Below are positions 53,001-59,000 of a DNA stretch of 64,000 nucleotides, piece by piece. Position 1 is the first letter of the stretch, and each line of letters begins with the position of its first letter. The DNA lies in IMG/VR virus record IMGVR_UViG_2630968933_000007, positions 53,025-117,024 of that record; one strand, 5' to 3'. Made by a program: the position numbers. Source of the stretch: a virus (Duplodnaviria; Heunggongvirae; Uroviricota; Caudoviricetes).

Positions 53001-56000
53001 AACGAGAGAGGTATACCGACAAATGGCAGCGACGCACACACTCCCTCTGGCGTCACCGGGCATGGCGCGCATCTGCCTTTACGGGGATTTGCAACGATTT
53101 GGCCGCCGCATCGACCTTCGTGTGAAAACGGGGGCTGAAGCCATCCGCGCACTGGCCACACAGCTCCCGGCGTTTCGTCAGAAACTGAGCGACGGCTGGT
53201 ATCAGGTACGGATTGCCGGGCGGGACGTCAGCACGTCCGGGTTAACGGCGCAGTTACATGAGACTCTGCCTGATGGCGCTGTGATTCATATTGTTCCCAG
53301 AGTCGCCGGGGCCAAGTCAGGTGGCGTATTCCAGATTGTCCTGGGGGCTGCCGCCATTGCCGGATCATTCTTTACCGCCGGAGCCACCCTTGCAGCATGG
53401 GGGGCAGCCATTGGGGCCGGTGGTATGACCGGCATCCTGTTTTCTCTCGGTGCCAGTATGGTGCTCGGTGGTGTGGCGCAGATGCTGGCACCGAAAGCCA
53501 GAACTCCCCGTACACAGACAACGGATAACGGCAAACAGAACACCTATTTCTCCTCACTGGATAACATGGTTGCCCAGGGCAATGTTCTGCCGGTTCTGTA
53601 CGGTGAAATGCGCGTGGGGTCACGCGTGGTTTCTCAGGAAATCAGCACGGCAGACGAAGGGGATGGTGGGCAGGTTGTGGTGATTGGTCGCTGATGCAAA
53701 ATGTTTTATGTGAAACCGCCTCCGGGCGGTTTTATCGTTTATGGAGCATGACGAATGGGTAAAGGCAGCAGTAAGGGGCATACCCCGCGAGAAGCGAAGG
53801 ACAACCTGAAATCATCCCAGATGCTGAGCGTGATCGATGCCATCAGCGAAGGGCCGGTTGAAGGTCCGGTGGATGGATTAAAAAGCGTGCTGCTGAACAG
53901 TACGCCGGTGCTGGACACTGAGGGGAATACCAACATCTCCGGTGTCACGGTGGTGTTCCGTGCCGGTGAGCAGGAGCAGACACCGCCGGAGGGATTTGAA
54001 TCCTCCGGCTCCGAGACGGTGCTGGGTACGGAAGTGAAGTACGACACGCCGATTACCCGGACCATCACGTCGGCAAACATCGACCGTCTGCGCTTTACCT
54101 TCGGTGTGCAGGCACTGGTGGAAACCACCTCAAAGGGTGACCGGAATCCGTCGGAAGTCCGCCTGCTGGTTCAGATACAGCGTAATGGTGGCTGGGTGAC
54201 GGAAAAAGACATCACCATTAAAGGCAAAACCACCTCGCAGTATCTGGCCTCGGTGGTGGTGGATAACCTGCCGCCGCGCCCGTTTAATATCCGGATGCGC
54301 AGGATGACGCCGGACAGCACCACAGACCAGCTGCAGAACAAAACGCTCTGGTCGTCATACACCGAAATCATCGATGTGAAACGAACACGGCACTGGTCGG
54401 CGTGCAGGTGGATTCGGAGCAGTTCGGCAGCCAGCAGGTGAGCCGTAATTATCATCTTCGCGGGCGCATTCTGCAGGTGCCGTCGAATTATAACCCGCAG
54501 ACGCGGCAATACAGCGGTATCTGGGACGGAACGTTAAAACCGGCATACAGCAACAACATGGCCTGGTGTCTGTGGGATATGCTGACCCACCCGCGCTACG
54601 GCATGGGGAAACGTCTTGGTGCGGCAGATGTGGATAAATGGGCGCTGTATGTCATCGGCCAGAATTGCGACCAGTCGGTGCCGGACGGCTTTGGCGGTAC
54701 GGAGCCGCGCATCACCTGTAATGCCTGGCTGACCACACAGCGTAAGGCGTGGGATGTGCTCAGTGATTTCTGCTCGGCGATGCGCTGTATGCCGGTATGG
54801 AACGGGCAGACGCTGACGTTCGTGCAGGACCGGCCGTCGGATAAGGTGTGGACCTATAACCGCAGTAATGTGGTGATGCCGGATGATGGCGCGCCGTTCC
54901 GCTACAGTTTCAGCGCCCTGAAGGACCGCCATAATGCCGTTGAGGTGAACTGGATTGACCCGAACAACGGCTGGGAGACGGCGACAGAGCTTGTTGAAGA
55001 TACGCAGGCCATTGCCCGTTACGGTCGTAATGTCACGAAGATGGATGCCTTTGGCTGTACCAGCCGGGGGCAGGCACATCGCGCCGGGCTGTGGCTGATT
55101 AAAACAGAACTGCTGGAAACGCAGACCGTGGATTTCAGCGTGGGTGCTGAAGGGCTTCGCCATGTACCGGGCGATGTCATTGAAATCTGCGATGATGACT
55201 ATGCCGGTATCAGCACCGGTGGTCGCGTGCTGGCGGTAAACAGTCAGACCCGGACGCTGACGCTCGACCGTGAAATCACGCTGCCATCCTCCGGTACCAC
55301 GCTGATAAGCCTGGTTGACGGAAGTGGCAATCCGGTCAGCGTGGAGGTTCAGTCCGTCACCGACGGACTTAAGGTGAAAGTGAACCGGGTTCCTGACGGC
55401 GTTGCAGAATACAGTGTGTGGGGGCTGAAGTTGCCGACGTTGCGTCAGCGCCTGTTCCGCTGTGTGAGTATCCGTGAGAACGATGACGGCACGTATGCCA
55501 TCACTGCCGTGCAGCATGTACCGGAAAAAGAAGCCATCGTGGATAACGGGGCGCACTTTGACGGCGACCAGAGCGGCACGGTGAATGGTGTCACGCCGCC
55601 AGCGGTGCAGCACCTGACCGCCGAAGTCACCGCAGACAGCGGGGAATATCAGGTGCTGGCGCGCTGGGACACGCCGAAGGTGGTGAAGGGCGTGAGCTTC
55701 CTGCTCCGTCTGACCGTAACAGCGGATGACGGCAGTGAGCGGCTGGTCAGCACGGCCCGGACGACGGAAACCACATACCGCTTCACGCAACTGGCGCTGG
55801 GGAACTACAGGCTGACAGTCCGGGCGGTAAATGCGTGGGGGCAGCAGGGCGATCCGGCGTCGGTATCGTTCCGGATTGCCGCACCGGCAGCACCGTCGAG
55901 GATTGAGCTGACGCCGGGCTATTTTCAGATAACCGCCACGCCGCATCTTGCCGTTTATGACCCGACGGTACAGTTTGAGTTCTGGTTCTCGGAAAAGCGG

Positions 56001-59000
56001 ATTACCGATATCAGGCAGGTTGAAACCACAGCCCGCTATCTTGGTACGGCGCTGTACTGGATAGCCGCCAGTATCAATATCAAACCGGGCCATGATTATT
56101 ACTTTTATATCCGCAGTGTGAACACCGTTGGCAAATCGGCATTCGTGGAAGCCGTCGGTCGGGCGAGCGATGATGCGGAAGGTTACCTGGATTTTTTCAA
56201 AGGCAAGATAACCGAATCTCATCTCGGCAAGGAGCTGCTGGAAAAAGTCGATCTGACGGAGGATAACGCCAGCAGACTGGATGAGTTTTCGAAAGAGTGG
56301 AAGGACGCTAACGATAAATGGAATGCCATGTGGGGCGTCAAAATTGAGCAGACCAAAGACGGCAAACATTATGTCGCGGGTATTGGCCTCAGCATGGAGG
56401 ACACGGAGGAAGGCAAGCTGAGCCAGTTTCTGGTTGCCGCTAACCGTATCGCGTTTATTGACCCGGCAAACGGGAATGAAACGCCGATGTTTGTGGCGCA
56501 GGGCAACCAGATATTCATGAACGACGTGTTCCTGAAGCGCCTGACGGCCCCCACCATTACCAGCGGTGGCAGTCCTCCGGTATTTTCCCTGACATCAGAC
56601 GGAAAGCTGACCGCTAAAAATGCGGATATCAGTGGCAGTGTGAATGCGAACTCAGGAACGCTCAACAATGTCACGATTAACCAGAACTGTACGATTAAGG
56701 GCATGCTGGAGGCGACCCAGGTCAGAGGGGATTTCGTTAAAGCTGTATCAAAAGCCTTCCCGAAAAAAGTCGGTACGTGGGGTAACACGGAAACACCAAA
56801 CGGTACGGTTACAGTCACCATCAGCGATGATCATAACTTTGACCGCCAGATTATTATTCCGCCCATTATTTTTAACGGTATAGCGTATGACGATCCGGGG
56901 AGCGGAAATAACCCAGGAGGCACGCGATACACGGGTTATGGTTTTGAAGTTCGCAAAAACGGCGTATTAATCGCATCCAGAGAAACTAAAGGGGCCATTC
57001 CCGGTAGTTACAGTGCAGTTATTGATATGCCTAGTGGTGGTGGTAGCGTCACTCTGGAGTTTAAGATTTTCCAGAAAGGCAATCAGGGGGCAGGCAATAT
57101 CACCGACTGTACGGTGATTGTGACCAAAAAAGCTGCTTCCGGCATCAGTATTCGTTGAAATATTTATAACCCCAATAAATGGCGTCAGGAATGACGCCTT
57201 TTTTATTGCAGAAAAGCGAGAGGTAATTATGCGTAAAGTTTGTGCCGCCATTTTGTCCGCAGCCATTTGTCTGGCCGTATCCGGTGCGCCTGCATGGGCG
57301 TCTGAACATCAGTCCACGCTGAGCGCGGGGTATCTTCATGCCCGGACCAACGTTCCCGGCAGTGATGATCTGAACGGGATTAACGTGAAATACCGTTATG
57401 AGTTTACGGATACGTTGGGGCTGGTGACGTCATTCAGCTATGCAGGAGACAAGTATCGCCAGCTGACCCGTTACAGCGATACCCGCTGGCATGAAGATTC
57501 CGTGCGTAACCGCTGGTTCAGCGTGATGGCGGGGCCGTCTGTACGCGTGAATGAATGGTTCAGCGCGTATGCGATGGTGGGTGTGGCTTACAGCCGTGTG
57601 TCGACTTTCTCCGGGGATTATCTCCGCGTAACTGACAACAAGGGGAAAACGCACGATGTGCTGACCGGAAGTGATGACGGTCGCCACAGCAACACGTCTC
57701 TGGTGTGGGGAGCTGGCGTGCAGTTTAACCCGACCGAATCCGTGGCCATTGATATTGCTTATGAAGGCTCCGGCAGTGGCGACTGGCGCACTGACGGTTT
57801 CATCGTGGGTGTCGGTTATAAGTTCTGATTAGCCAGGTAACACAGTGTTATGACAGCCCGCCGGTTCAGGCGGGCTTTTTTGTGGGGTGAATATGGCAGT
57901 TAAGATTTCAGGTGTACTGAAAGACGGCACAGGAAAACCGGTACAGAACTGCACAATCCAGCTGAAAGCAAAACGTAACAGTACCACGGTGGTGGTGAAC
58001 ACGCTGGCCTCAGAAAATCCGGATGAAGCCGGGCGTTACAGCATGGACGTTGAGTACGGGCAGTACAGCGTTATTCTGTTGGTGGAAGGATTCCCGCCGT
58101 CACATGCCGGGATCATCACCGTGTATGAAGATTCTCAACCCGGTACGCTGAATGATTTTCTCGGTGCCATGACGGAGGATGATGCCCGTCCGGAGGCACT
58201 GCGCCGTTTTGAACTGATGGTGGAAGAGGTGGCGCGTAACGCGTCCGTGGTGGCACAGAACACGGCAGTCGCGAAGAAGTCAGCCGGCGATGCCGGCACA
58301 TCTGCCCGTGAGGCGGCAACCCATGCGACTGATGCTGCAGGCTCAGCACGCGCAGCCAGCACGTCAGCCGGACAGGCCGCGTCGTCGGCTCAGTCAGCGT
58401 CTTCCAGCGCAGGAACGGCATCAACAAAGGCCACTGAAGCGGAAAAAAGTGCTGCCGCTGCAGAGTCCTCAAAAAGCGCGGCGGCCACCAGTGCCGGTGC
58501 GGCGAATACGTCAGAAACGAATGCGGCAGCGTCACAAAAATCAGCAGCCACTTCTGCATCCACCGCGACTACGAAAGCGTCAGAAGCTGCCACCTCAGCC
58601 CGGGATGCGGCGGCTTCAAAAGAGGCGGCAAAATCATCAGAAACGAACGCATCCTCGAGCGCCAGTAGCGCAGCTTCCTCGGCAACAGCGGCAGGAAATT
58701 CCGCGAAGGCGGCAAAAACGTCCGAGACGAACGCCAGGTCTTCTGAAACGGCAGCGGGACAGAGCGCCTCGGCTGCGGCAGGCTCAAAAACAGCGGCTGC
58801 GTCGTCTGCCAGTGCAGCGTCAACAAGTGCCGGGCAGGCCTCAGCCAGTGCCACCGCCGCCGGAAAATCGGCAGAAAGCGCCGCATCATCCGCTTCAACA
58901 GCCACAACGAAGGCTGGCGAAGCCACTGAACAGGCCAGCGCAGCAGCGAGGTCTGCTTCCGCAGCGAAGACATCCGAAACGAACGCGAAAGCGTCGGAAA

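Follow-up and report, generated by a model that had tools for sequence, protein, structure and literature searches.

Gene J of the Qin-site prophage of Escherichia coli G1/2: a phage-434-type receptor-binding region and a 10-bp gap that is probably an artefact of draft assembly or finishing

The prophage and its tail genes

The window (the whole stretch of DNA analysed, 64,000 nucleotides) was identical to contig JPKH01000024.1 over the 12,687 bp compared. This contig belongs to the 2015 draft of E. coli G1/2 (probiotic, Symbioflor 2), obtained by Illumina GAIIx sequencing, Velvet assembly and PCR gap closure. Over 64 kb the window was collinear with the finished genome of G1/2, except for an IS element in lom of the finished genome; coordinates of the features discussed are collected in Table 1. 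According to the annotation of the collinear finished genome, the window holds a full-length prophage with the marks of Qin: the rspB/ydfJ site, dicB/dicA/dicC, relBE, hokD, the csp genes (cspB/F/I) and pinQ/tfaQ; int, xis, exo, essD/rrrQ/rzpQ, nohA, lambda-like heads and tails, lom and stf fragments are also present.

J is placed after H, M, L, K and I and before lom/stf, the gene order of TipJ/gpJ. FNIII-A_GpJ (Pfam) spans residues 86–207 (E = 5.8e-43); in the 3' part Phage-tail_3, Ig_J, Ig_J_second, Phage_Tail_Tip and Ig_GpJ_C were found, corresponding to a hub domain, two Ig-like domains, a tail-tip fibre domain and a receptor-binding domain. All six families exceeded their curated cut-offs over the two fragments of the gene and gave the TipJ/gpJ domain series, and the 3' part was aligned end to end with lambda gpJ (chain 8iyk_J, residues 214–1131). 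The gene is a lambda-type J, coding for the central tail fibre/host-specificity protein.

The 1-bp deletion in U was present in both draft and finished genome (no draft-versus-finished indel at the site; U annotated as "frameshifted" in finished G1/2), and the prophage is already tail-defective because this frameshift occurs in both assemblies. Gene stf is split into fragments.

Table 1. Features of the window, with strand and the evidence used for each.
Feature	Position	Strand	Evidence
Whole prophage, Qin site, between rspB and truncated ydfJ	16672..62866		annotation of collinear finished genome
Exonuclease gene core, carrying the allele of the ompW-locus prophage of the same strain	18569..19949	-	informative-site comparison
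Lambda-like morphogenesis arm, cos, Nu1 to J, 97% identical to lambda 1-18471	38231..56712	+	DNA alignment
1-bp deletion in tail-terminator gene U (vs lambda 8618)	46844..46844	+	indel list
Perfect 25-bp tandem duplication in tape-measure gene H	49951..50000	+	indel comparison
J 5' part, codons 1-209, native frame (N-terminal region and FNIII-A domain)	53755..54381	+	translation, Pfam
Junction of 10-bp deletion, CAGTGCTACC missing	54381..54382	+	alignments
Out-of-frame tail of truncated 228-aa product, 19 codons and stop	54382..54441	+	translation
J 3' part, codons 214-1137 of repaired gene, -1/+2 frame vs 5' part	54384..57158	+	translation, Pfam
Receptor-binding region, phage-434 type, about residues 975-1137, diverged from lambda	56667..57155	+	block identities, Pfam Ig_GpJ_C, PDB comparison

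Interruption of gene J

In the initial annotation a gpJ-like gene with a 10-bp deletion had been described, one frame ending at 54381, another resuming at 54384 and the residues QCYP missing between them; translation and DNA alignment with the J genes of finished G1/2, phage 434 and lambda bore this out, and alignment with lambda and other J genes gave neither a continuous J ORF nor a lambda-identical C-terminus. The sole gap in the DNA alignment against the intact J of finished G1/2 and phage 434 consisted of the 10 bases CAGTGCTACC, and within ±60 bp of it all other bases were identical to both. These 10 bases (lambda 16132–16141) are kept in lambda, phage 434 and all other J genes compared; with them Q, C, Y and the first base of P (codons 210–213) are lost.

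Mechanical ORF calling gave two ORFs, 53755–54441 (228 aa) and 54402–57158 (918 aa). By translation, frame 1 from 53755 goes out of frame past 54381 and is closed by the stop at 54441, and the frame from 54384 is open to 57158. A continuous frame of about 1130 codons was absent from J of the window and present in finished G1/2; when CAGTGCTACC was put back, a single ORF of 1137 aa was obtained. That this restores a single frame is no coincidence, since the gene is 3414 bp long in thousands of homologues. Direct repeats able to explain slippage were not found at the deletion (microhomology of 1 bp, C). The 32-mer spanning the junction had no match in 5426 complete E. coli genomes, GTDB representatives, IMG/VR or JGI metagenomes, and in an exact-product look-up the 228-aa truncated product was on record only on contig JPKH01000024.1.

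It is extremely improbable that the split is functional, whether through a programmed ribosomal frameshift or bypass or through expression of the 918-codon ORF (GTG at 54402) as a tail-tip protein of its own. The sole point in favour is the length of both ORFs together with the retention of all C-terminal domains in the second, but the junction GAT GTG AAA CGA ACA contains no slippery heptamer X XXY YYZ, the sequence ahead of the GTG (aacacggcactggtcggcGTG) has no Shine-Dalgarno-like motif, and the two-frame arrangement occurs in no other genome, hence nothing is conserved; on these three grounds both variants are effectively refuted. A J devoid of residues 1–219 would, moreover, lose the N-terminal region ahead of the hub, which is probably needed for tail-tip assembly.

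Receptor-binding region

Repaired J was compared with lambda J in blocks: identity was 46–50/50 per block up to column 950, and 38/50, 21/50, 14/50 and 13/43 beyond it (about 30–40% over the last ~160 residues). The claim that the C-terminal region differs from that of lambda was thus correct. The further suggestion of a different receptor specificity held in so far as the receptor-binding region is not lambda's; novel it is not: it is of phage-434 type and departs from 434 J at only 4 positions of the last ~165 aa, all after residue 970 (N1019D, I1108V, Q1110H and G1115R).

J C-termini of the phage-434 type are reported to bind OmpC, not LamB (PMC3509688, PMC11101478), and, according to the same papers (citing Hantke 1978), 434 J moved into lambda led to the use of OmpC. 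The receptor-binding region of the window J is accordingly of a type predicted to direct adsorption to OmpC instead of LamB; LamB specificity is not expected from the sequence, because only about 30–40% of the last ~160 residues are shared with lambda. The region is ordinary and already known: DNA of 56680–57158 was found in 2113 of 5426 complete E. coli genomes (39%), and in finished G1/2 it is single-copy.

Draft and finished genomes compared

In the finished genomes of G1/2 and its sister strains G6/7 and G8, gpJ is intact (3414 bp) at the same locus (finished G1/2: WP_187002376.1, NZ_CP060083.1 2626407–2629820). On independent sequencing of the same clone the J lesion was therefore not reproduced, and the U frameshift was. 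Of the inactivation proposed in the initial annotation, the interruption of J by a deletion stands for this sequence; as an event in the organism it is not supported, given three intact finished genomes and a chimeric draft (see below), and the deletion may not exist in the cell.

Apart from the gap, the window J differed from finished G1/2 J by 14 nucleotide substitutions and 1 amino acid (T55S). Of these substitutions 13 are synonymous and most correspond to alleles known from lambda, 434 or M217; they look like a mixing of functional alleles rather than decay. Draft and finished genome showed 258 mismatches in all, every one in patches within prophage or mobile-element sequence; none was found in 2–18 kb and 26.0–39.4 kb of the window. 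Gene lom is intact in the window and carries ISEc12 in finished G1/2.

A second lesion private to the draft was found in H, 4.4 kb upstream of the J deletion: a 25-bp duplication, absent from finished G1/2 and lambda, by which H is split into 48767–50134 and 50109–51353 (nearest informative allele sites, 49642 and 50093). Such a pattern, two indels within 8 kb of tail genes and 0 substitutions across about 30 kb of single-copy DNA, is not what divergence between two stocks of one strain would leave.

The draft is demonstrably chimeric in the exonuclease gene, where its sequence alternates between two paralogous prophage copies of the same finished genome, that of the Qin locus (A) and that of the ompW locus (B): of 196 informative sites in 18303–20839, 166 match copy B, nearly all within the exo core, and the flanks match copy A (order along the draft: A ×6, B ×39, ..., B ×112, A, B, A ...). 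The finished genome is not free of quality problems either: more than a dozen genes of its ompW-locus prophage are "frameshifted". This prophage, the only paralogue recovered, was rejected as source of the patches in the tail genes, its J being just 73% identical.

Patches of the draft were compared with 5426 complete genomes, one best place being taken per genome. The 5' end of J had no exact match (best 97.9%) and neither had lom (best 98.9%); the H patch had no exact match in any complete genome. G1/2 was not among the matches listed for the J 5' patch, the H patch and lom, where one best place was taken per record and many genomes tie.

Origin of the deletion

The deletion in J is probably an artefact of draft assembly or finishing, the draft rather than the finished genome being wrong. 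An error could not have yielded the intact J, because the exact 10 consensus bases would have had to be inserted. On this reading the 10-bp gap in J, a gene of the lambda-like Qin-site prophage, would be an error of a short-read draft contig in a multi-copy prophage region; the 25-bp duplication in H would likewise have arisen in assembly or finishing. A possible route is the joining of two contig ends without the true 10-bp gap or 25-bp overlap. A (k-1) contig overlap was considered as origin of the 25-bp duplication and rejected: k is odd in Velvet, overlaps are even and 25 is unsuited. Short or uncertain gaps are written by Velvet as runs of N. The comparisons establish which gene this is, the type of its receptor-binding region, the conflict between the two assemblies and the chimeric nature of the draft; that the draft is wrong at the J site, and how the error arose, are what we infer to be most likely, and J at the Qin locus in the cell would most likely be intact.

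A real 10-bp deletion is a tentative alternative: a recent spontaneous frameshift of J in the culture of G1/2 that was sequenced in 2014, or one masked by paralogue-driven polishing of the finished assemblies. The product would be an N-terminal stub of 209 residues with 19 junk residues, devoid of hub, fibre and receptor-binding domain; particles of this prophage would have no tail tip, and the event would be ordinary decay of an already defective prophage. The deletion is present in the deposited sequence; other lesions of the prophage are known (the U frameshift in both assemblies, split stf, ISEc12 in the finished lom); spontaneous mutation typically produces small deletions and tandem duplications; and a single amino-acid change in 1137 residues fits a very recent event. 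Novel junction k-mers are not normal in de Bruijn assembly and 10-bp indels are rare in Illumina reads, so that the two lesions also look like genuine spontaneous mutations. The deletion is, in addition, flanked on both sides by sequence of Qin-locus type (locus-specific markers 54039–54222 and 54488–54626); no switch of allele between paralogues is visible at it, the same locus allele lying on either side, which counts against an artefact.

Several results speak against a real deletion: J and H are intact in all three finished genomes of this clone, the draft is chimeric in the same prophage, and the junction turned up in none of the other genomes and metagenomes searched. As divergence of stocks, two private indels 4.4 kb apart are very unlikely when the single-copy DNA of the window shows 0 substitutions. 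It is rather unlikely that the J deletion and the H duplication are both real in G1/2, having either arisen in a production stock or been silently "healed" in the finished assemblies. Healing would proceed through a choice of graph path, or through polishing, in which reads of intact paralogous prophages prevailed, and in principle polishing with such reads could have overwritten a real lesion in the finished genome.

Significance

The finding in J is of little biological weight, because the prophage is already tail-defective through U; 434-type (OmpC) J genes are widespread and frameshifted tail genes are routine in cryptic prophages. For Symbioflor 2 G1/2, infectious particles from the Qin-site prophage hinge on U, not on J. 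Caution is advised with pseudogene calls in multi-copy prophage regions of short-read drafts, which should be verified in the reads or in a finished assembly before any evolutionary meaning is given to them. Were the lesions real and healed, they would show by a concrete example that finished genomes report too few prophage pseudogenes; had they arisen in a production stock, prophage tail genes would be decaying within decades of storage and propagation.

Comparison with known systems

Phage 434 J (UMO75286.1; also in lambda h434 hybrids): the same length as repaired J (1137 aa); 16 amino-acid differences overall from the window J; DNA 97.0% identical over 3404 bp; the same neighbours, H-M-L-K-I-J-lom-stf. 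Phage 434 is a free phage with J complete, whereas the window J lies in a chromosomal prophage at the Qin site and is 10 bp short.

Lambda gpJ (NP_040600.1; structures 8iyk and, with LamB, 8xcj): domain architecture identical; about 97% identity in residues 1–950. Its last ~160 residues form the LamB-binding domain, where the window J is only about 30–40% identical.

Finished G1/2 gpJ: same strain and locus, intact; the accompanying H is free of the 25-bp duplication and the accompanying lom carries ISEc12.

Engineered A8 chimeric gpJ (PDB 9wca), an OmpC-binding lambda J: the top-scoring solved structure for the receptor-binding region of the window J (147.8 bits, against 119.7 for lambda). 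It is only roughly half identical to that region and has a different natural allele, not of the 434 type. Binding of OmpC by A8 has been reported (bioRxiv 10.1101/2022.09.30.509847).

Qin of E. coli K-12: the same site, rspB/ydfJ'; dicB, dicA, dicC, relBE, hokD, cspB/F/I, rrrQ, nohA, tfaQ and pinQ shared with the window prophage. In contrast to K-12 Qin, which we take to have lost the module between nohA and stfQ, the window prophage has an integrase annotated as intact and has kept a complete lambda-like head and tail module. The size of Qin among strains ranges from 11 to 97 kb (PMC6379469).

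Frame break in the J gene

The lambda-type tail-tip (host-specificity) gene J was called in the window as two ORFs, 53755–54441 (228 aa) and 54402–57158 (918 aa). DNA alignment with intact J genes gave a single 10-bp gap, CAGTGCTACC, at the junction 54381/54382; the rest of the surrounding 130 bp was identical. The missing bases, found identically at lambda 16132–16141, encode Q, C and Y and supply the opening base of the P codon; on their re-insertion one ORF of 1137 aa was obtained (repaired J), differing by 1 residue from J of the finished genome of E. coli G1/2 (NZ_CP060083.1) and by 16 residues from J of phage 434. 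The frame break and the loss of residues QCYP, noticed in the initial annotation, were thus borne out by the gap relative to intact J genes and lambda; the alignment with lambda J and other J genes, a check named beforehand, likewise gave two ORFs and not one continuous J ORF.

The 5' and 3' fragments jointly hold the full gpJ domain series (Pfam: FNIII-A; Phage-tail_3 hub, Ig_J, Ig_J_second, Phage_Tail_Tip and Ig_GpJ_C) and match the lambda gpJ chains of solved tail-tip structures end to end. The gene is an ordinary lambda/434-type J in a Qin-site prophage, of a kind already known. It is very unlikely that the two frames are joined by functional frameshifting or that a J protein is made separately from the downstream ORF: no slippery heptamer was found at the junction GAT GTG AAA CGA and no Shine-Dalgarno-like motif ahead of the GTG at 54402, and the two-ORF arrangement was not conserved among the J relatives compared, including 5426 complete E. 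coli genomes.

Features of the J region and of other prophage genes (window coordinates)
Feature	Position	Strand	Description
1-bp deletion, unpaired	19244		Within the mosaic exo core
1-bp insertion	20782		exo start codon
2-bp insertion	25320		Poly-A run longer by two A's in the draft than in finished G1/2; finished annotation: pseudogene, frameshifted with internal stop
Gene U, 1-bp deletion	46844		Relative to lambda 8618; frameshift; between Z (46203–46781) and V (47150–47920)
H tandem duplication	49951–50000		Perfect 25 bp, GAAATATACCGAAGAGGCGCAGAAG twice; splits tape-measure gene H into ORFs 48767–50134 and 50109–51353
J 5' ORF	53755–54441	+	Translation: native frame, then 19 out-of-frame residues
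J 3' frame	54384–57158	+	Translation: open through to the stop at 57158
lom	57229–57828		Intact in the draft; finished copy (L004, the stretch holding it, 9891–12940) split by a 2.4-kb IS21-family element, ISEc12
Side-tail-fibre gene pieces	57887–59314; 59365–60267		Finished annotation: C-terminus and N-terminus missing, respectively
tfaQ	60267–60842		
pinQ	60940–61530		Pin-type invertase; adjoins the side-tail-fibre gene

Prophage carrying J

In the annotation of the collinear finished genome the prophage is flanked by rspB and a truncated ydfJ; its genes include dicB/dicA/dicC, relBE, hokD, cspB/F/I, rrrQ, nohA, tfaQ and pinQ, and 38231–56712 is 97% identical in DNA to lambda 1–18471 (cos through J). 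From its position, gene content and lambda-like arm it is therefore a full-length Qin-site prophage; prophages at this site range from 11 to 97 kb across strains (PMC6379469). The lambda-like arm (cos-Nu1...J) is combined with an early and lysis region of Qin type (dicB, relBE, hokD, csp genes), so that the element amounts to a 'complete Qin' bearing lambda heads and tails; its integrase is annotated as intact (16672–17967).

The lesion of gene U is the same in the draft and in the finished genome, where it is annotated as 'frameshifted'; since the two agree, it is probably a genuine inactivating lesion of the Qin-site prophage, which is already tail-defective through U, whatever the state of J. 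The side-tail-fibre gene, too, is broken into pieces.

Another inserted element (1–6400) was seen upstream of ynfF; it holds the 3' portion of a giant gene with an LPD38 domain (frameshifted in finished G1/2), a Panacea-domain protein (2033–2557), an IbrB-like/PAPS-reductase pair (2646–4501) and antirepressor genes, and adjoins a truncated gene for a 4Fe-4S protein, presumably what is left of ynfG. The first 1.5 kb of the window contains 11 mismatches between draft and finished sequences.

Draft and finished sequences of strain G1/2

By exact-product look-up, the 228-aa truncated J product was found on one contig only, JPKH01000024.1 of GCA_000768405.1, which is identical to the window throughout a comparison of 12,687 bp. 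The 2015 draft of the Symbioflor 2 strain E. coli G1/2, JPKH00000000, was obtained from Illumina GAIIx reads with Velvet (252 contigs), gaps being closed by sequencing of PCR products (PMC4358396). NZ_CP060083.1, from the same strain, is collinear with the window over 64 kb except for ISEc12 in its lom, and an intact 3414-bp gpJ is present at this locus in finished G1/2 and in the finished sister strains G6/7 and G8.

Base-by-base comparison of draft and finished G1/2 gave 258 mismatches and 14 indel positions, the mismatches being unevenly spread: 0 in 2–18 kb, 0 in 26.0–39.4 kb and 157 in 18–20 kb, while others cluster in H, in K, at the 5' end of J, and in lom and stf; in the side-tail-fibre region 22 are packed into 59116–59206. 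Two frame-changing indels were found in the head and tail genes, the 10-bp deletion in J and the 25-bp duplication in H; the latter is in neither finished G1/2 nor lambda and, like the J deletion, is private to the draft. The early region has three more net indels (20782, 25320 and 19244).

The draft lom differs from the two finished lom halves by 10 mismatches, which suggests that it was built from a paralogous lom; an intact draft lom against an IS-split finished one would be expected if the assembler had passed through a paralogue.

Chimerism of the draft

The window exo (minus strand) was closest to that of the ompW-locus prophage at 2.97 Mb of finished G1/2 (99.1%), the Qin-locus copy being lower. 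A three-way alignment of the window with copy A (Qin-locus allele) and copy B (ompW-locus allele) over 18303–20839 gave 196 informative sites: six of A type, then a B-type core at 18569–19949 (runs of 39, 6 and 112 B sites and a few window-unique sites), then short alternating A and B runs; a third paralogue may be the source of ca. 10 sites at which the window fits neither A nor B. Alleles A and B are also seen as separate sequences in the three finished genomes of Symbioflor strains and in strains unrelated to them; the fine-scale mosaic thus belongs to the draft, which is chimeric in this prophage.

Between the window J and the locus copy 14 substitutions were counted, 13 of them synonymous and most representing alleles present in lambda, 434 or strain M217; judged from sequence, the pattern looks like mixed functional alleles, not decay. 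Among 5426 complete genomes searched, no exact match was found to the window's initial 241 bp of J (97.9% at best) or to its lom (98.9% at best).

Origin and consequence of the J deletion

The 10-bp deletion is rather probably an artefact of the draft, because the finished genomes contradict the draft at this site, because the draft is a chimera within this prophage, and because the junction was absent from 5426 complete E. coli genomes, GTDB representatives, IMG/VR and JGI metagenomes. A span of 4.4 kb in the multi-copy tail genes holds two private frameshifts, whereas ca. 30 kb of single-copy DNA shows 0 differences; such clustering is far too tight for true divergence between two stocks of one strain, which also favours an artefact; nor could the intact version have been created by error, since the exact consensus 10 bases would need adding. 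Junctions of such a kind are, however, seldom invented by short-read graph assemblers, and the deletion is flanked on both sides by the locus allele; a real, very recent deletion is accordingly a tenable, if doubtful, reading, against which stand the three intact finished copies and the missing junction. A true lesion could conceivably be masked by polishing with paralogous reads, and the finished genome has a suspect run of frameshifted genes of its own, in another prophage.

In that ompW-locus prophage (L007, NZ_CP060083.1 2925001–2975000) more than 12 consecutive morphogenesis genes are annotated as 'frameshifted' (terminase, portal, capsid, tape measure, J in pieces), unlike its early region, which is clean; heavy decay or leftover long-read indel errors could be the cause, and caution is due in treating finished G1/2 as an error-free reference.

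If the J deletion were real, the product would consist of residues 1–209 and 19 junk residues, with no hub, fibre or receptor-binding domain, and no tail tip would be formed; this would be unremarkable prophage decay.

Receptor-binding region and comparison with known J proteins

Repaired J and lambda J share 46–50 identical residues per 50 up to column 950, after which identity falls (38/50, 21/50, 14/50, 13/43); against phage 434 J the same C-terminal blocks gave 50/50, 49/50, 50/50 and 34/37. The C-terminal region is thus unlike that of lambda, as had been noticed. Of the different receptor specificity proposed with it, the departure from lambda stands, the domain being by its sequence the known OmpC-type of phage 434; it is no unusual specificity, being long known and very common. 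The 5426 complete E. coli genomes included 2113 with DNA of this type; 633 records were at least 99% identical. A lambda phage given 434 J in place of its own J takes OmpC as its receptor, as 434 does, instead of LamB (PMC3509688; PMC11101478).

Among solved structures the engineered OmpC-binding 'A8 gpJ' (9wca) scored highest for the window domain and lambda lower, neither being identical. DNA identity to the window J over the whole gene length was 96.5% for a lambda h434 hybrid and 97.0% for phage 434 J, from which the window's receptor-binding domain differs by N1019D, I1108V, Q1110H and G1115R only.
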